Assembly (NCBI GenBank): GCA_046536775.1
Contig: JAWDMD010000031.1
Coordinates: 1 to 5,115 of the forward strand
Reading direction: 5' to 3'
Origin: Candidatus Nanopusillus sp.
Lineage (GTDB): Archaea; Nanobdellota; Nanobdellia; Nanobdellales; Nanobdellaceae
Length of the DNA stretch: 5,115 nt
Shown here: one piece after another, positions 1 to 5,115 of the stretch
How positions within the stretch are numbered: position 1 is the first letter of the stretch
Layout of the letters: every line of letters begins with the position of its first letter
The notes under the pieces: generated by a model
What the model saw: only the letters and a program-made list of their open reading frames with translations
Databases searched by the model: none
Told to the model about the DNA's origin: nothing
Translations under genes and position numbers: made by a program

Positions 1-216
1 ATTACTTGTTTGAAATTCTATATGTAGTATTGAGTTATCTTCAAGCTCTAAAAGTAAATCCACCCTTCTTTCTTTTGTGCTTGGAAACGCTGAGTTCAAA
101 ACACGTTTGTAGTTTTTACCTATTATCATTCTTATAAATGCGCTTTCTGAAAAAGATGGAATTATATCTCTTATTGTGATATCTATCTTCTGAGGATGTT
201 TATTCTCTTGATCCAT
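1..216 (-). CDS. Rpn/YhgA-like PD-(D/E)XK nuclease / putative transposase family protein, first 72 codons only (gene continues beyond the left window edge)
   Basis: Absent from the supplied track because it has no stop inside the window. The reverse complement of 216..1 is an uninterrupted frame from ATG (216..214): MDQENKHPQKIDITIRDIIPSFSESAFIRMIIGKNYKRVLNSAFPSTKERRVDLLLELEDNSILHIEFQTSN. The block RRVDLLLEL..NSILHIEFQ is the Asp ... Glu-x-Gln nuclease core I associate with Rpn/YhgA-type (transposase_31-like) proteins. The family call rests on that motif alone. There is no Shine-Dalgarno upstream. Confidence 0.5.
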   Translation of the reverse strand, partial: MDQENKHPQKIDITIRDIIPSFSESAFIRMIIGKNYKRVLNSAFPSTKERRVDLLLELEDNSILHIEFQTSN

Positions 217-228
217 AACTTAAGTAAA

Positions 229-237
229 ATTATATCA
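229..237 (-). promoter_or_regulatory. Candidate extended -10 element (TGATATAAT on the minus strand) for the Rpn-like gene
   Basis: The reverse complement of 237..229 reads TGATATAAT. Only 12 nt separate it from the ATG at 216..214, implying a leader of about 5 nt (near-leaderless). That fits the lack of an SD. Confidence 0.3.
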
Positions 238-324
238 CTCTTTGTATAAGTCTATATAAAGCATAGAAAGAGAGGTTTGTCATATTTGAGATAAGTGTTT
301 TCTTAAAAGAAAATAATATCACGA

Positions 325-396
325 CAAGTCTGCCACAATCCACAAGTATACCACGATAAACAAGTCTGCCACGATCCACAAGTCTACCACGGTTTA
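325..396. repeat. Four head-to-tail 18-bp direct repeats (iteron/operator-like array)
   Basis: Units: 325..342 caagtctgccacaatcca, 343..360 caagtataccacgataaa, 361..378 caagtctgccacgatcca, 379..396 caagtctaccacggttta. The period is exactly 18 bp and the conserved core is CAAGT(C/A)T(G/A)CCAC. Units 1 and 3 are 17/18 identical; units 2 and 4 are 14/18 identical to unit 3. A fifth core copy (aagtctgccgc) occurs at 4188..4198 in the right-hand flanking repeat. Confidence 0.85.
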
Positions 397-451
397 TATG
401 TCTACGATGTATTGAACTTGTGCAATTTTTTATAAATAAATATGATATAAT
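380..451. repeat. Left copy of the ~70-bp imperfect direct repeat bracketing the cassette (candidate attL / duplicated rpsT promoter region)
   Basis: 380..424 aligns without gaps to 4188..4232 (offset 3808) with 41/45 identities. Mismatches are at 386, 389, 398 and 402, and all are transitions. Similarity continues with small indels through TATAAAT (431..437 vs 4237..4243) to the TGnTATAAT element (443..451 vs 4248..4256). Confidence 0.85.
443..451 (+). promoter_or_regulatory. Candidate extended -10 promoter (TGATATAAT) for the three-ORF cassette
   Basis: Perfect TGnTATAAT at 443..451, about 78 nt upstream of the first ORF. TTGAAC at 412..417 is -35-like but lies 28 nt from the -10, so it is probably not used as a -35. 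The homologous element sits upstream of rpsT at 4248..4256. Confidence 0.45.
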
Positions 452-529
452 AAGTCATAGGAGAGTAGATTAATTATTAAGTTTTAAAAGTAGTTGAAAT
501 AAACAGATAGGAATAAAAGGAGTGAAGTT

Positions 530-604
530 ATGGGAAAACCTTATAAGACTTTGAAATTGATTTCTTACTTTCACAATAAGCAGATCAGATTTTTAAAGGT
601 GTGA
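530..604 (+). CDS. Hypothetical 24-aa basic peptide (possible leader peptide or small subunit)
   Basis: ATG 530..532 to TGA 602..604 encodes MGKPYKTLKLISYFHNKQIRFLKV. It is preceded by AAGGAG (517..522) with 7-nt spacing, which is a better SD than that of the following ORF. Its stop lies 12 nt before the next start. It is too short for composition or homology arguments. Confidence 0.3.
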   Translation: MGKPYKTLKLISYFHNKQIRFLKV

Positions 605-616
605 AGGGGTGAAAAT

Positions 617-916
617 ATGCCTACTGAAATAATATTAATTGTTATCTTGATTTTATTATTAATTTCAATTGCTTTAAATATTACTACTTACTTGAAACTT
701 GAGAAAAACAAAAGTTTAATACTAGAAGAGATGTCAAATCGTCACAAAGAGGTATCAAATCACAACAATATGATTCAAACCGCAATGAACCAAGCGTTTT
801 TAGATCTAGATAAAAAGATAGAGCGACATGAAAATGAAATCAAAGAACTTGAGGAAAAAATTGAGCATATTATAAAACTTCTTAAAGAGCCATTAACAGA
901 GGAAGATTTAAGATGA
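617..916 (+). CDS. Hypothetical small membrane-anchored coiled-coil protein (99 aa)
   Basis: ORF from the track. SD-like AAGGGGTG lies at 604..611, 5 nt before the ATG. The N-terminus EIILIVILILLLISIALNITTYL is one hydrophobic helix. The remainder is charged, heptad-like sequence (KKIERHENEIKELEEKIEHIIKLLKE). Stop TGA 914..916 overlaps ATG 913..915 of the helicase gene (ATGA). I do not recognise a family. Confidence 0.7.
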   Translation: MPTEIILIVILILLLISIALNITTYLKLEKNKSLILEEMSNRHKEVSNHNNMIQTAMNQAFLDLDKKIERHENEIKELEEKIEHIIKLLKEPLTEEDLR

Positions 917-1794
917 ATGATAAACAATATATCTTAGATTATCTTGGATATTTAAAAGAGTTAAGTAGAAAAATCGGTGTTGGAGTTGATTTTGGAAATC
1001 TTGTTAAATCTAAACCAAGAAATAAAAATCTTGAAAATACTTTTTTCTACTTTGATAAAAACTTAGACATAGGAGAAATTTATAGAATTGACATAGGAGA
1101 AATTTATAGAGCTAATAAAGAAGTAGATGGAAAATTATATTGGTACTTAAGGCAAAAGCTTATAGAAATTAATAATTCAAATCAAGCAATATTTTTAGGT
1201 ATTGGATTATTAAAATATGTAATAAAAGAGAATGGAAGTTATACCAATAAAGCCTTTGGACCTATTTTTATAGTTAACTTAGATATAGAAGAAGATAAGG
1301 AAGGTAAAAGTATATCTATTTATTTTGAAAACTCATATATAAATTATGATCTTTTTAATAACATATCTGAAAATTTAGAAGATAACGAAAACTCTATCCA
1401 ATTAGAACAAGCAGTATACTTTATAAAAACCTTAGAAGAAAAACTTGAAGAAACAAATAATTTGCTTGGTTTAAAGACTCTTGCAAAAGAAGCTATTTTG
1501 AAAATTCCTGAAGCATTTAACATTAAAATTGAACAAGACATTACAATAGAAAACAAAAATGTAGAAGAGATATTTGATAAAAAAGAAAGCGTTTATTTAG
1601 ATAGAAATTATTTTTTTGTCAATAACTTTCCTTCTGAACTATCAACTTACAAATCTTTAGAATTGTTAATTCAAGAAATAAATGAAGAAGGAGATTTTAA
1701 AAACAGCACACTAAAAAAACTTTTTGTATCAGCCTTTGAAGAAAAGATTAACTTAGAGAAAGTTGACAATTTTAAACTTGAAGACTATGAATAT
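913..1794 (+). other. N-terminal region of the 1087-aa protein, tentatively DUF4011-like
   Basis: aa 93-126 read IFLGIGLLKYVIKENGSYTNKAFGPIFIVNLDIE. This resembles the pattern (hydrophobic-G-x-L-x-W/Y ... A/G-P-L/I-hydrophobic-x-P/N-V/L-x-L) that I remember from the DUF4011 domain preceding AAA_11/AAA_12 helicase cores. PRNKNLEN (aa 35-42) is loosely reminiscent of its RNxLLN motif. This is recognition from memory only. Confidence 0.35.
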
Positions 1795-4176
1795 TTAACT
1801 CCTTTGCAACTTTCAGAAAGTCAGAAAAAAGCTCTTGAGAATGCTATAAATTACGAAATTTCTTATATACAAGGACCTCCGGGAACTGGTAAAAGCCATA
1901 CTATAACTGCATTGGCTTTATTGTCTATTTTACTTGATAAAAAAATTCTAATCGTTTCTCAAAAACCACCGGCTATTAAGGTTCTGTTTGAAAAGTTAAC
2001 AGAAATTTTAGAAAAAAATAACATTATTCCGTTTATTTATTACTATGATGAGCACAAAAGAAAAATGAAGGAAAATGTAGGAGCTGTTGAGAGATTAAAT
2101 ATAAAAGACGATTTAGAAGAAAGATTAAGATACTTGGAAGAAAGAGCAATAGATTACATTAATGAGTTAAAAGAATTAGAGAAAAATTATAAAAAATATC
2201 TTGCATTGGAAAATAAATATTACTCTATAAGAAAAGATTTGAATGATGAAGTCAAGTTTTTTGAGGGAGGATTTTTTAATATCAAAAATTACCTCAATCA
2301 CTTAAAATGCATAGAAATTGAAGAGCTAAATCTTCATAAAAATACTTTTAAAGTATTAGAAGGATATGGAAATACAAGACTTTTGCAGTTAAGAAAAGTA
2401 TTTCTTTATAGATTTTTAAAAAACTATCACAAAGAGCTTGAGCTTAAGAAATTTTTAAATATTAGCCAATCTTTATTCTTAGATTCTCTGATAAAAATAA
2501 TTTATGATTATAATAAAATTCAAGATACAAAAAGTAAGATTTTATCATTTGGAGATATACAGAATTTAGTCAATCGGATAAACCATATAAAAAGCCAATT
2601 AATGCAAGTTTCAAAAGAGTTAGTAAATTTAAAGCTATTACTTAAGATTTATGAAAATGCACAAAAATATAAAAATAATTTAGCCAAATTTAAGAATGTT
2701 TTTCATTGGGTAAAAGATCGTTTATTAAAGAATGTACAAGAAAAAGTTAATTATGAAAATATTTTGGAAATTTTTAATATTTGGATTGTAGATATTCCAA
2801 ACGTAGACAGAATACTACCTATGAAGCCAAACTTATTTGATATCGTTGTAGTTGATGAATCCTCTCAGGTAAATTTAGCTCAAATAATTCCGGTATTTTA
2901 TAGAGGTAAGCATATTTGTGTAGTTGGAGACCATAAACAGCTAAGCCTTGAGGCTACAGGTTTAGGATTTTCTATTGGTGGAAAACTTGATAGGTATACA
3001 TGGGAAAAATTTAAACCAAATAAGATAGATTATGAACAAGCAAAAAGAAGAGATTTAATATTAACAAAATCTTCTATTTTAGATTTTCTAGTTTCAGATG
3101 ATTCTGATAAAGATTCGAACAGAGAATCTTTTAACTACATAAGCGCAGAAGCTCAAAGTATGTTAAACGAACATTTTAGGTCAGTTTATCCTTCGGCAAG
3201 TTTTACTTCAAAGAAATTTTATGAAAATAAGATTTATATTATGACAAAAAATCCGAATTTAGAAGATAAAGCATTTAAAAGTATCAAAGTTAACGGTAAA
3301 AGGCATTTAAAATTTAATGTTGTTGAAGAAGAAATAGATGAAGTTTTTAAAATTATTAAAAGTCTAAAAAGAAATAGAAGATATGAGGACGTTGTTTTAC
3401 CAGATTATGTTCCAGAAAATTTTTCAATAGGGGTATTATCATTTACAAGGGATCAAGTGGTGAGGTTGAAGATTAGAAGTTATGCAAACAGTTATGAAGA
3501 TATATTCATAGGAACGCCAGAAGAATTTCAAGGTCATGAGAAAGATGTAATGATTATATCACTTGCTTTGGATGAGACATGCACAAGAAGTAAAAACCAT
3601 TATGAAAATAAAAATAGATTTAATGTTGCTACAAGTAGAGCAAAATATTTTACGTTTTTAGTTTATGGTGGAATTCCTGAAAACTTCCATTTGACTAAGG
3701 AATACATAGCACACTTTGAAAGTATAGAAAATATAGATAGAAAAGACATTGATACAGAAAATGCTTGCTTTGACAAATCTAAATTTGACTCAGAATTAGA
3801 GGAATTTGTTTATAATTATTTAAAAGATATAGTAAACGAGATAAATAAAAATTACCACTCAGATATAAGAATATACAATCAATATGAAACTTGTGGTTAT
3901 AGATTGGATTTTGTATTGCATAATAGAAAAAACAAAAAATTTATTGCATTGGAAGTTGATGGACCATACCATTATGAAATGGCAGGTTTACAAAATATTA
4001 ATTATGCTGATTGGCATATAGAAAGAGCAGAAAGGTTAAAAAGAGCTGGGTGGAAAATAATTCATACACCATATTATAGGTGGTATATTAACGGATGGTT
4101 AGATTCAAGCAATCCTATTATGAGAGAAGAGTTAGAAAGAATTAAAAAGGAACTAGTAGAAAACTTAACCACTTAA
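913..4176 (+). CDS. DUF4011-like / Upf1-DNA2-like SF1 helicase / Vsr-DUF559-like PD-(D/E)XK nuclease fusion protein (Hhe-like candidate defence effector, 1087 aa)
   Basis: 3264-nt ORF with SD GAGGA at 899..903. Helicase motifs: Q-like LSESQKKAL (aa 300-308), Walker A GPPGTGKS (aa 321-328, nt 1873..1896), Walker B VVVDESSQ (aa 645-652, nt 2845..2868), motif III VVGDHKQL (aa 670-677), motif IV-like LNEHFRSVYP (aa 751-760), motif V TPEEFQGHEKDVMIISL (aa 868-884), motif VI NRFNVATSRAK (aa 901-911). C-terminus: GYRLDFVL...FIALEVDGPYHY...ADWHIERAERLKRAGWKIIH, which is the DUF559/Vsr-like signature. Confidence 0.95.
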   Translation: MNDKQYILDYLGYLKELSRKIGVGVDFGNLVKSKPRNKNLENTFFYFDKNLDIGEIYRIDIGEIYRANKEVDGKLYWYLRQKLIEINNSNQAIFLGIGLLKYVIKENGSYTNKAFGPIFIVNLDIEEDKEGKSISIYFENSYINYDLFNNISENLEDNENSIQLEQAVYFIKTLEEKLEETNNLLGLKTLAKEAILKIPEAFNIKIEQDITIENKNVEEIFDKKESVYLDRNYFFVNNFPSELSTYKSLELLIQEINEEGDFKNSTLKKLFVSAFEEKINLEKVDNFKLEDYEYLTPLQLSESQKKALENAINYEISYIQGPPGTGKSHTITALALLSILLDKKILIVSQKPPAIKVLFEKLTEILEKNNIIPFIYYYDEHKRKMKENVGAVERLNIKDDLEERLRYLEERAIDYINELKELEKNYKKYLALENKYYSIRKDLNDEVKFFEGGFFNIKNYLNHLKCIEIEELNLHKNTFKVLEGYGNTRLLQLRKVFLYRFLKNYHKELELKKFLNISQSLFLDSLIKIIYDYNKIQDTKSKILSFGDIQNLVNRINHIKSQLMQVSKELVNLKLLLKIYENAQKYKNNLAKFKNVFHWVKDRLLKNVQEKVNYENILEIFNIWIVDIPNVDRILPMKPNLFDIVVVDESSQVNLAQIIPVFYRGKHICVVGDHKQLSLEATGLGFSIGGKLDRYTWEKFKPNKIDYEQAKRRDLILTKSSILDFLVSDDSDKDSNRESFNYISAEAQSMLNEHFRSVYPSASFTSKKFYENKIYIMTKNPNLEDKAFKSIKVNGKRHLKFNVVEEEIDEVFKIIKSLKRNRRYEDVVLPDYVPENFSIGVLSFTRDQVVRLKIRSYANSYEDIFIGTPEEFQGHEKDVMIISLALDETCTRSKNHYENKNRFNVATSRAKYFTFLVYGGIPENFHLTKEYIAHFESIENIDRKDIDTENACFDKSKFDSELEEFVYNYLKDIVNEINKNYHSDIRIYNQYETCGYRLDFVLHNRKNKKFIALEVDGPYHYEMAGLQNINYADWHIERAERLKRAGWKIIHTPYYRWYINGWLDSSNPIMREELERIKKELVENLTT
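1066..1113 (+). repeat. In-frame 24-bp tandem duplication inside the helicase gene
   Basis: gacataggagaaatttataga at 1066..1086 is repeated perfectly at 1090..1110. The third-to-last codon block differs (att vs gct). It encodes DIGEIYRI-DIGEIYRA (aa 52-67). Confidence 0.9.
1795..3663 (+). other. SF1B (Upf1/DNA2/NAM7-like, AAA_11 + AAA_12 type) helicase core
   Basis: All canonical motifs are present in the correct order (see the CDS entry). The GPPGTGKS, DExxQ, GDxxQL, FQGxExD and NVAxSRAK combination is characteristic of Upf1-like SF1 helicases rather than UvrD/Rep-like ones. Confidence 0.85.
3787..4110 (+). other. C-terminal Vsr/DUF559-like (MTES_1575-type) PD-(D/E)XK endonuclease domain
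   Basis: The candidate catalytic constellation is intact: D999 (nt 3907..3909, in RLDF), E1014 and D1016 (nt 3952..3960, in LEVDG) and H1020. It is followed by D-x3-R-x3-L-x3-G-W-x-I-I (aa 1033-1050), typical of DUF559. Confidence 0.75.
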
Positions 4177-4187
4177 CTAAGCTCTAT

Positions 4188-4256
4188 AAGTCTGCCGCGG
4201 TTTATGTGTTTACGATGTATTGAACTTGTGCATTTGTATAAATTGTTTGTTATAAT
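4188..4256. repeat. Right copy of the ~70-bp imperfect direct repeat (candidate attR / native rpsT promoter region)
   Basis: See the left copy. It starts 12 nt after the helicase stop codon and ends 29 nt before the rpsT ATG. It contains one copy of the 18-bp repeat core (aagtctgccgc). Confidence 0.85.
4248..4256 (+). promoter_or_regulatory. Candidate extended -10 promoter (TGTTATAAT) of rpsT
   Basis: TGnTATAAT at 4248..4256, with a second overlapping TATAAT at 4256..4261. It lies 29 nt upstream of the rpsT ATG. The SD AAAGGAGGT is at 4272..4280. Confidence 0.5.
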
Positions 4257-4285
4257 ATAATATTAATTTTTAAAGGAGGTTTTAG

Positions 4286-4567
4286 ATGCCCAACAAAAGA
4301 CAGGCTGCTAAAAGAGCTAGAAGAGATGAAAGAAGAAGAGAGATAAATGCGTTGCACGTATCAAGGATGAAAACTGCCATAAGGAATTTTAAGAAACTCA
4401 TACAAGCCAAAGATTTGGAAACCGCCAAAGCCAAACTTCCTTTTGTGGTAAGTATGATCCAGCACGCAGCCGCTAAGGGTTCTATACACAAAAACGAAGC
4501 GGCCAGAAGAGTCTCAAGAGTTACACAGCTTTTAAACAAGGCTTTGGCATCCAATGAGCAAAAATAA
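4286..4567 (+). CDS. rpsT: 30S ribosomal protein S20
   Basis: 93-aa product MPNKRQAAKRARRDERRREINALHVSRMKTAIRNFKK...AAKGSIHKNEAARRVSRVTQLLNK. It matches the conserved S20 pattern (AKKRA..E.RR..N....S..KT.IK ... AAKG.IHKN.AAR). There is a strong SD with 5-nt spacing. G+C is higher than in the upstream cassette. Confidence 0.95.
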   Translation: MPNKRQAAKRARRDERRREINALHVSRMKTAIRNFKKLIQAKDLETAKAKLPFVVSMIQHAAAKGSIHKNEAARRVSRVTQLLNKALASNEQK

Positions 4568-5115
4568 GATATACACTATTTTATCGCTTAGCATCACAGC
4601 TATATTTGTGGCCATAGGTTTTTATTTTCTTAAAAACCATGAAAAAGAGTACAACGAAGCTGCAAGTTATCAACTATCAAAAGTAGATGAGCTTTTGCAA
4701 CAAAAAAACTATCAAGGAGCCCTAAACCAAGCGCAGTTTGTGGCAACCCATTATAAGAAAAGCCCAATGGCGCTTTTGGCAATGTCTTATGAAATAGGTA
4801 TATCCACGTTGGCAAACTTGCCTGTGAACGACGTTGCTTTATCTCAAGATATTTCATCTAAAGCAAAAACATTGCCTGCTAAATTCTTATACGAAGAAAG
4901 GGCAGCTTATGGGCTATACAAAGAAGGTAAATATCAACAAGCCATAAGCATACTAAACACCATCCCAAACAACGCTTTCAACAAAGCTTCTGCCTTGCTA
5001 TTGGAAGCCGAAGCTTACGAAAAATTAAACGACAAAGTAAAAGCTATAACAGTTTACAACGATATAATAAAAGCGTTTCCAAAAAGCTATTATGCAAACG
5101 TAGCCTCTCTTAGAA
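4554..5115 (+). CDS. Membrane-anchored TPR-like protein (YfgM/YbgF-like), N-terminal 187 codons; continues past the right window edge
   Basis: Absent from the track because there is no stop in the window. I read the frame from ATG 4554 through 5115 without a stop: MSKNKIYTILSLSITAIFVAIGFYFLKNHEKEYNEAASYQLSKVDELLQQKNYQGALNQAQF...ERAAYGLYKEGKYQQAISILNTIP...EAEAYEKLNDKVKAITVYNDIIKAFPKSYYANVASLR. It has a basic N-terminus plus one TM helix, then TPR-like A/Y/G-patterned helices. The SD is weak. The ORF overlaps the rpsT 3' end by 14 nt. Confidence 0.6.
   Translation, partial: MSKNKIYTILSLSITAIFVAIGFYFLKNHEKEYNEAASYQLSKVDELLQQKNYQGALNQAQFVATHYKKSPMALLAMSYEIGISTLANLPVNDVALSQDISSKAKTLPAKFLYEERAAYGLYKEGKYQQAISILNTIPNNAFNKASALLLEAEAYEKLNDKVKAITVYNDIIKAFPKSYYANVASLR

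Follow-up and report, generated by a model that had tools for sequence, protein, structure and literature searches.

The question raised by this locus is how three open reading frames (ORFs) came to lie immediately upstream of rpsT, the gene for ribosomal protein S20, between two direct copies of the sequence that precedes rpsT itself. The stretch of DNA considered here, called the window, is the whole of positions 1 to 5,115 of contig JAWDMD010000031.1 (5,115 nucleotides (nt)). An earlier note described imperfect direct repeats of about 70 bp at both ends of a three-ORF cassette and explained them by Campbell-type insertion of a circular element carrying a sequence like the rpsT promoter. The S20 protein of the window is identical in the Hydrogenobaculum genomes CP004347.1 (strain HO; L001) and CP001130.1 (Y04AAS1; L004) and in many hot-spring metagenome contigs; the source of the window is a Hydrogenobaculum strain of HO type, a hot-spring bacterium, and the window shows the end next to rpsT of a hypervariable island that begins beyond the Rpn-like gene at carB. 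The explanation that we consider probable, with moderate confidence, is homology-driven gain and loss of cassettes between copies of a portable promoter module, each of which would also supply a promoter.

The argument depends on the following features.

324..395, forward strand: four 18-nt minisatellite units (324-341, 342-359, 360-377 and 378-395), consensus ACAAGTCTRCCACGATCC (Tandem Repeats Finder, period 18, 3.8 copies)
378..424, forward strand: left repeat copy, made of the last minisatellite unit and a core ending in TTGAACTTGTGCA (42/47 identical to 4186-4232; aligned with all copies upstream of rpsT)
425..4185, forward strand: cassette-specific DNA, which with one repeat copy makes a 3808-bp insertion relative to the empty site
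443..451, forward strand: extended -10-like element TGATATAAT reading into the cassette (taken from the sequence; kept in all cassette copies; putative promoter)
4186..4232, forward strand: right repeat copy, made of one unit (variant ATAAGT...) and the core, which is the native upstream region of rpsT (alignment)
4248..4256, forward strand: extended -10-like element of rpsT, TGTTATAAT (read from the sequence; invariant across strains; putative function)

When recomputed, positions 380-424 match 4188-4232 at 41/45 sites with a constant offset of 3808 bp, exactly as first described. Given the composition of the window, a match of 41/45 or better would arise somewhere in it with a probability of about 2e-10. 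The copies differ at repeat positions 7, 10, 19 and 23 (A/G, A/G, A/G and C/T), and alignment bears out the description of these differences as transitions throughout, three of which make the left copy more AT-rich. With positions 378-379 and 4186-4187 added the identity is 42/47, and a wider direct repeat, 375-432 against 4183-4240, shows 84% over 58 nt at the same offset. The last 22 nt of the repeat (TACGATGTATTGAACTTGTGCA, at 403-424 and 4211-4232) are the same in both copies, which diverge 3' of TGTGCA. It is true that an extended -10 (TGnTATAAT) follows in both (TGATATAAT at 443-451 and TGTTATAAT at 4248-4256), as the proposed 70-bp homology had it, but the part past about 47 nt does not rise above shuffled sequence, since the local alignment of 425-620 with 4233-4430 was equalled or beaten by 90/500 shuffles. 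The secure repeat is thus about 47 nt and not 70. BLAST aligns the left copy of the window with the rpsT-proximal copies of L001 and L003 at 86-88% over 73 nt. A decayed copy of the rpsT Shine-Dalgarno sequence and start codon at the left copy was also considered and was rejected on the same 425-620 alignment. At 47 nt the repeat is too long for the target-site duplication of a transposase, a point of the earlier note that holds, and neither terminal inverted repeats, nor an inverted repeat at the junctions, nor hairpins were detected. The left copy is the 3' end of the four-unit tandem array at 324-395, which is absent from the earlier note. All Hydrogenobaculum contigs examined have the right-copy sequence ahead of rpsT. 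Exactly three ORFs do lie between the copies, at 530-604, 617-916 and 913-4176.

Comparison with related genomes revealed the empty site that had been predicted. The cassette is present at 98% identity in L001 and L003 and is missing from L002, L004, L005 and L006, all of Y04AAS1 type, in which the Rpn-like gene that begins upstream of the cassette is followed by a single repeat and rpsT. Window positions 1-452 correspond to L004 9487-9972 and positions 4188-5115 to L004 9903-10830, so that the two flanks overlap by 70 bp on that single repeat. Deletion in silico of 425-4232 (3808 bp) gives a product colinear with Y04AAS1 except for two whole-unit minisatellite indels, in agreement with the expectation that recombination between the copies would cleanly remove the cassette. 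The repeat lies upstream of rpsT in all 22 of the 22 rpsT-proximal sequences examined, with or without the cassette, and so the idea of an insertion at this sequence survived the possibility that genomes lacking the cassette would lack the repeat as well. The cassette is an insertion/deletion polymorphism bounded by repeats, and both marks of a Campbell element, direct repeats at the two ends and a single-copy empty site in relatives, were found.

The rpsT site exists in several nested states. In the simplest of them, state 0, which L007-L010 and eight metagenome contigs represent, GCTTTTTAGGTTATAGAACGCTTGCTAAGATAGTTT comes immediately after a lipoprotein-like gene (19x aa) and leads into the units, the core and rpsT. 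In state 1 (L002, L004-L006) the Rpn-like gene, on the minus strand, stands between two module copies, and hence in these relatives it is itself a bracketed cassette; in Y04AAS1 the left flank of state 0 is followed by units, a decayed core TTTATGATGTATTTAACCTGTAC, the Rpn-like gene, a second array with an intact core and rpsT. State 2 has the helicase cassette of the window between a further pair of modules (the window, L001 (HO), L003, L052, L063 and L065). In L050 carB is directly followed by a module, a restriction-modification (R-M) cassette encoding an 815-aa N6_Mtase/HSDR_N protein and a 466-aa HsdS-like protein, another module and rpsT, where the flanking direct repeats, of 111 nt (87%) and 77 nt (73%), span unit, core and -10. 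In L052 four co-oriented module copies stand in a row, one ahead of each unit. Three unrelated cassettes are therefore bracketed alike at one site.

The repeat itself proved to be composite. The minisatellite follows the 18-nt pattern ACAAGTMTRCCACGnnnn, and a search of species-representative genomes with a two-unit pattern (22 specified bases) returned 34 stretches; 33/34 come from five Hydrogenobaculum/Aquificaceae assemblies or one Hydrogenothermaceae assembly, and the remaining one is a chance match. The arrays have 2-8 units and unrelated flanks, are intergenic or run inside open frames (18 nt being 6 codons), and often stand at contig ends; examples are L016-L049 (such as L024 375-516 and L039 4986-5075) and L008 11050-11085. 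At the aminotransferase/HxlR junction 0, about 0.7 or 2 units are present, depending on the strain. The core is about 27 bp long and ends in TTGAACTTGTGCA. In its exact form it is limited to rpsT and the cassette; in the metagenome collection the exact 19-mer was confined, apart from six unrelated chance matches, to DNA ahead of Hydrogenobaculum rpsT (12 contigs). When as many as 5 of 21 positions may differ, related cores come up in front of the R-M cassette, a tRNA gene and the operons for lipoproteins and Sel1 proteins, usually following units and preceding TGTTATAAT. A second core subtype, TGTGTTCACGATGTAGTGAACTTATACA, with the inverted hexamers GTTCAC/GTGAAC, occurs at L009 10500-10640 (minus strand), at L050 5070-5146, and in L023 and L037. 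It is found ahead of a tRNA gene and also follows the first subtype in tandem, and may be a site at which a regulator binds to translation-related promoters that have it in common. In the literature searched on Hydrogenobaculum and Aquificales repeats no description of the minisatellite or of the hotspot was found.

Because its 5' part is a dispersed 18-nt unit and its core belongs to a family heading unrelated transcription units, the repeat is a member of a promoter-like module family and not a private attachment site. The earlier note had named a common dispersed element as the result that would make the bracketing coincidental; the unit and related cores are dispersed indeed, which bears this out in part but offers a means of cassette movement instead. 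The truncated junction copy, the match of the in-silico excision product and the recurrence of the same arrangement around other cassettes speak against a coincidence. The copy designated R1, beside the Rpn-like gene, is a truncated module that ends at the core, has no -10 and has no gene to drive; it is a junction remnant and not a working promoter.

The small differences between the copies are informative about exchange. They had been read as a sign that the copies had diverged or had different origins, a reading that is not sustained as regards origin: positions 7 and 23 are polymorphic among single-copy rpsT sites and position 19 is as in the right copy of HO, which leaves only position 10 private to the window. 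Left copies vary by strain though the cassettes are about 98% identical. That of the window is of rpsT type (42/47), those of HO, L003 and L063 lack 2 nt and are altered elsewhere too (39-41 identities), and that of L052 has a "c-type" core, the subtype otherwise placed before lipoprotein and Sel1 genes; the TATATGT variant is shared by the left copy of the window and the right copy of HO. This pattern fits repeated recombination or gene conversion among modules, as judged from sequence comparison, and not one clean site-specific event. In a related lineage the cassette genes occur at another locus: in L011-L014 a helicase 85-87% identical to that of the window and its small partner lie between a hemN-like radical-SAM gene and proC (89% nucleotide identity to window 843-4168), with no unit or core nearby, and the same pair of small gene and helicase is present in the Thermocrinis contig L015.

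In the explanation favoured here each transcription unit of the island, and rpsT likewise, is headed by a portable module composed of a variable number of 18-nt units, the core and an extended -10. The helicase cassette has such a module at its own 5' end and the rpsT module abutting its 3' end, and for this reason it is bracketed by direct repeats. The module copies would then serve as portable homology by which the general recombination of the host inserts, excises and swaps cassettes, and gene conversion would homogenise them. Incoming DNA could be either a circular excision product, entering in the Campbell manner, or a linear fragment from another strain, and the deletion junction left by recombination between the copies would read units, core, TTTGTATAAATTG. 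Since each copy would supply a promoter, both the cassette and rpsT would stay expressed. Promoter activity, homologous recombination as the mechanism and the direction of events are what we infer here. From the Campbell-type insertion of the earlier note this account keeps the direct repeats and the single-copy empty site, but no recombinase lies in or next to the cassette and the repeat is not a private site.

Several observations speak against this explanation. About 47 nt is short for efficient RecA-dependent recombination, to which the longer arrays and the repeats of L050 (about 190 nt) are better suited. In several independent cassettes the junctions coincide with unit boundaries and with the end of the core, a regularity that could point instead to a sequence-specific enzyme. 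A consensus scan found no canonical sigma-70 -35/-10 pair at the left or the right copy, and the core, which precedes the -10 by 19-22 nt, is for that reason not a canonical -35. Furthermore, homologous recombination alone does not explain the origin of the first duplicated copy. The window has fewer promoter-like sites than its shuffles, and no terminators were found at the repeats.

According to a rival explanation, a dedicated enzyme would use the 18-nt units, the core or both as an attachment site, and cassette circles carrying one unit and the core would integrate in the Campbell manner; possibly the enzyme is one of the two Rpn-family PD-(D/E)XK proteins of the island. In the helicase cassette, as in the L050 R-M cassette, exactly one unit and the core remain between the right junction and rpsT, the Rpn-like gene with one array and core would make a minimal repeat-flanked unit of 1.1 kb, and arrays are often situated at contig ends and strain-variable junctions, all of which agrees with this idea. 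However, neither a tyrosine nor a serine recombinase was detected in the cassette or the island, and no integrase was found among the cassette ORFs (Pfam, NCBIfam and PADLOC) or the neighbouring genes (Pfam annotation), only Rpn-family PD-(D/E)XK proteins. In addition, tblastn placed no Rpn-like gene beside the other 33 arrays, the repeats of different cassettes measure anything between 47 nt and about 190 nt, the left copy is not of one type in all strains, and neither hairpins nor inverted repeats are present (with either copy folded as DNA on either strand, z = +0.27 to +1.87 against shuffles). To our knowledge no Rpn protein catalyses site-specific integration. The action of a dedicated enzyme is therefore regarded as unlikely.

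It is quite unlikely, too, that the bracketing is a coincidence, in which case selection would keep members of one promoter family similar, the repeats would play no part in cassette movement, and the cassette would have arrived by illegitimate recombination or by flanking-homology replacement after transformation. The module family does head many unrelated units, long conserved flanks (the Rpn-like gene and rpsT) could by themselves exchange the presence and absence of the cassette, and in bacteria it is common for unrelated genes to be preceded by homologous sequence (PMC3575422). Against this, the two copies of the window (42/47) are closer to each other than to other family members, the R1 copy is a truncated remnant of a junction with no -10, excision in silico restores the empty site except for whole-unit indels, and three different cassettes are bracketed in the same way at one site.

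A bolder proposal is that minisatellite and core are the recognition site of an undescribed, integrase-independent system of cassette capture, perhaps acting through the Rpn-family PD-(D/E)XK nucleases of the island, which would stack promoter-equipped cassettes beside rpsT and seed arrays at other variable junctions; we hold it to be a long shot. If true, Aquificae would have an analogue of the integron, with each cassette bringing along or being given a promoter of its own. Finally, a duplication at insertion, by a long staggered break or a minisatellite-promoted tandem duplication followed by capture of foreign DNA between the copies, with only those events surviving that kept an rpsT promoter, is very unlikely: tandem modules with no genes between them exist (two copies 87 nt apart in L050), unit number changes freely between strains and loss of the rpsT promoter would presumably be strongly counter-selected, but the spacer, -10 and leader behind the left copy are its own and not those of rpsT, and the left copy of L052 is of a different core subtype, which is unexpected from simple local duplication. 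A viral origin was rejected, both the minisatellite and relatives of the helicase being missing from the viral contigs searched.

The genes of the cassette and its flanks are listed below.

1..216, reverse strand: 5' end (72 codons) of a 327-aa gene, a distant relative of Rpn / PD-(D/E)XK "transposase" proteins (sequence and profile comparison)
530..604, forward strand: 24-aa upstream ORF MGKPYKTLKLISYFHNKQIRFLKV, with the strong Shine-Dalgarno sequence AAAGGAG 7 nt upstream (ORF call)
617..916, forward strand: 99-aa protein that has a membrane helix at its N-terminus and also a coiled coil; it accompanies the helicase as a conserved partner, and its stop codon overlaps the start of the helicase gene
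913..4176, forward strand: 1087-aa Upf1-like superfamily 1 (SF1) helicase (AAA_11/AAA_12) with a C-terminal MTES_1575/RAP (Vsr-like) nuclease domain (Pfam)
4271-4278, forward strand: rpsT Shine-Dalgarno sequence AAAGGAGG, 3' of TGTTATAAT (sequence)
4286..4567, forward strand: rpsT, ribosomal protein S20, 93 aa (Pfam Ribosomal_S20p, E=1.6e-23)
4554..5115, forward strand: TPR-repeat membrane protein, partial, the conserved right flank found in all loci (Pfam TPR_6/TPR_19)

The GC content of the cassette is about 21-31%, against 36-39% for rpsT and the DNA downstream. The leader at 425-616 was seen only together with the rpsT-site cassette in 535 kb of DNA examined. In it the 24-aa ORF is intact in the window and in 4/5 other cassette-bearing sequences (L001, L003, L052 and L063), with one K/E change; it had no family match and might be a leader peptide or merely unconstrained sequence. 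Known RNA families gave only a chance match to a small nucleolar RNA (E=0.3). The small partner protein varies in length (61, 99, 128, 153 or 160-161 aa) by tandem duplications in the coiled-coil region, such as that of 87 bp in HO (L001 6368-6541) and the 21-bp repeat of the window (726-848), while its C-terminal motif IEHIIKLLKEPLTEEDLR is kept as far as Thermocrinis; PADLOC gave no match to it.

The helicase gene stops 9 nt before the right repeat copy. No exact protein of the window helicase is on record, and close variants were used for comparison with homologues, which are known from Thermocrinis, Persephonella and Thermodesulfobium; the closest solved relatives in the PDB are Sen1, Upf1/NAM7, IGHMBP2 and DNA2. 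PADLOC reported partial matches to MkoA, MkoC and Hhe. The match to MkoA (E=2e-36) covers only the C-terminal half of the helicase (residues 641-912 against profile positions 791-1068), and the NCBIfam matches to IGHMBP2, ProA and Hhe are all far below cut-off, that to Hhe (NF042953) reaching 53.4 bits against a cut-off of 2000 over residues 302-428 only. Pfam did not find DUF4011 in the helicase, and no cassette protein exceeded any curated defence-family threshold in PADLOC or NCBIfam. The helicase-nuclease with its small partner is considered a candidate defence module. The Walker A motif of the helicase is GPPGTGKS (residues 314-321). Nearer the N-terminus, the peptide repeat DIGEIYRI/DIGEIYRA results from a tandem duplication of 24 bp in the gene (GACATAGGAGAAATTTATAGA[AT/GC]T; window 1066-1113). 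The cassette decays in part of the population, as expected of dispensable genes, because stops or frameshifts break up the helicase gene in certain natural copies (L003 6623-9891, 250+837 aa; L065 1038-4288, 139+101+791 aa).

On the left flank, the product of 1..216 is 96% identical to the N-terminus of the protein encoded by L001 4847-5830 (reverse strand). The designation "Rpn-like" for this gene has a weak basis in a TIGR01784 (Rpn) match of 30 bits (E=4.3e-7), but it falls below the cut-off of 52.1 and is sub-threshold; the Y04 copy matches PDDEXK_2 (E=5e-4), and the C-terminus of the protein resembles a nearby bona fide Transposase_31 protein (E=3e-13). In L003 (4118-6025) the Rpn-like gene is interrupted by about 1.1 kb with Sel1-repeat ORFs, a further insertion layer in the island. 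The island as a whole contains a CRISPR (clustered regularly interspaced short palindromic repeats) array, Rpn-family genes and Sel1/lipoprotein genes, and in some strains restriction-modification genes. The CRISPR array (repeat GTTTTGTTTGTACCTATAGGGGATTGAAAC, spacers of about 36-38 nt) lies between carB and the Transposase_31 (Rpn) gene (L004 1754-3724, L001 1097-1609, L003 493-798 and L010 1-3200). Lone degenerate CRISPR repeats deeper in the island, at L004 5283-5313 and at L001 4673-4702 just upstream of the first module, suggest that gene insertions have split up the array. A link between the lone degenerate repeat and the 18-mer array, based on a repeat-spacer-like spacing of 38 nt, was dropped, as there is no sequence similarity. 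Outside the island, L008 has a strain-specific insertion (7475-9737) between purA and the HxlR gene that carries an N6_N4 methyltransferase, a RE_BsaWI-type restriction enzyme and PsiE; it is on the opposite side of HxlR from the polymorphic minisatellite array, which directly precedes the HxlR start codon.

Among known systems, the nearest in one respect are putative mobile promoters, for which the mechanism of mobilisation was left open and whose definition asks for non-paralogous genes of one genome to share, in their upstream DNA, 50 nt or more with no less than 80% identity (Matus-Garcia, Nijveen & van Passel 2012; PMC3575422). The locus agrees with this definition. Likewise, closely similar non-coding sequence stands here before unrelated genes, at 89% over 47 nt and 86% over 73 nt (86-88% over 73 nt by BLAST, the part past 47 nt alone not being significant), and the repeat occupies the -150 to -50 zone of both start codons; what differs is that the copies are co-oriented and adjacent, that they bracket strain-variable cassettes at a single hotspot, and that the module includes an 18-nt minisatellite. 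Islands of Campbell type with attL and attR share with this locus the direct repeat at each end, the single-copy empty site and the restoration of the site by recombination between copies, whereas here there is no integrase or excisionase and no tRNA-gene target, the repeat comes from a dispersed family of promoter modules, and several unlike cassettes stack serially at one site. Integron arrays are likewise serial, with co-oriented unrelated cassettes at one site and recurring short sequences between them. Unlike these, the locus has no IntI (none among the called genes from carB to rpsT in L001, L003 and L004), its separators are direct repeats without the hairpin potential of attC, each cassette has a promoter-like module instead of a shared Pc, and one cassette is in the opposite orientation. 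Transposons and insertion sequences differ more plainly, as the repeat is at least 47 nt, terminal inverted repeats are missing and Pfam found no transposase in the cassette.

The content of the region resembles that of defence islands, with a CRISPR array, an R-M cassette, a helicase-nuclease and Rpn-family nucleases between carB and rpsT in a combination that varies by strain, though the cassette proteins fall below all curated defence-family thresholds. Promoter-module bracketing is, as far as we know, not a described feature of defence hotspots. With Hhe and Mokosh (MkoA/MkoC) the cassette protein shares an SF1 (Upf1-like) helicase core, a Vsr/DUF559-type nuclease domain and partial profile matches; it differs in its length (1087 aa against models of about 1100-1900 aa, matched only over helicase motifs), in the lack of DUF4011, in scores far below the cut-offs and in an obligatory small membrane/coiled-coil partner.

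In summary, the locus brings to the biology of these bacteria a new minisatellite of 18 nt, limited to one genus and its close relatives, with strain-variable copy number and no described function, and a module of two genes, conserved and encoding a helicase-nuclease and its partner, that is a candidate for a defence system. We know of no phages isolated for Hydrogenobaculum, a thermoacidophile. The locus may be considered a population-sampled case in which mobile-promoter-like modules are the hinges on which a cassette hotspot turns. Sites with no cassette, with one, with two and with an alternative cassette all survive in nature, and for this reason the questions of how mobile promoters move and how they affect gene flux become testable here.

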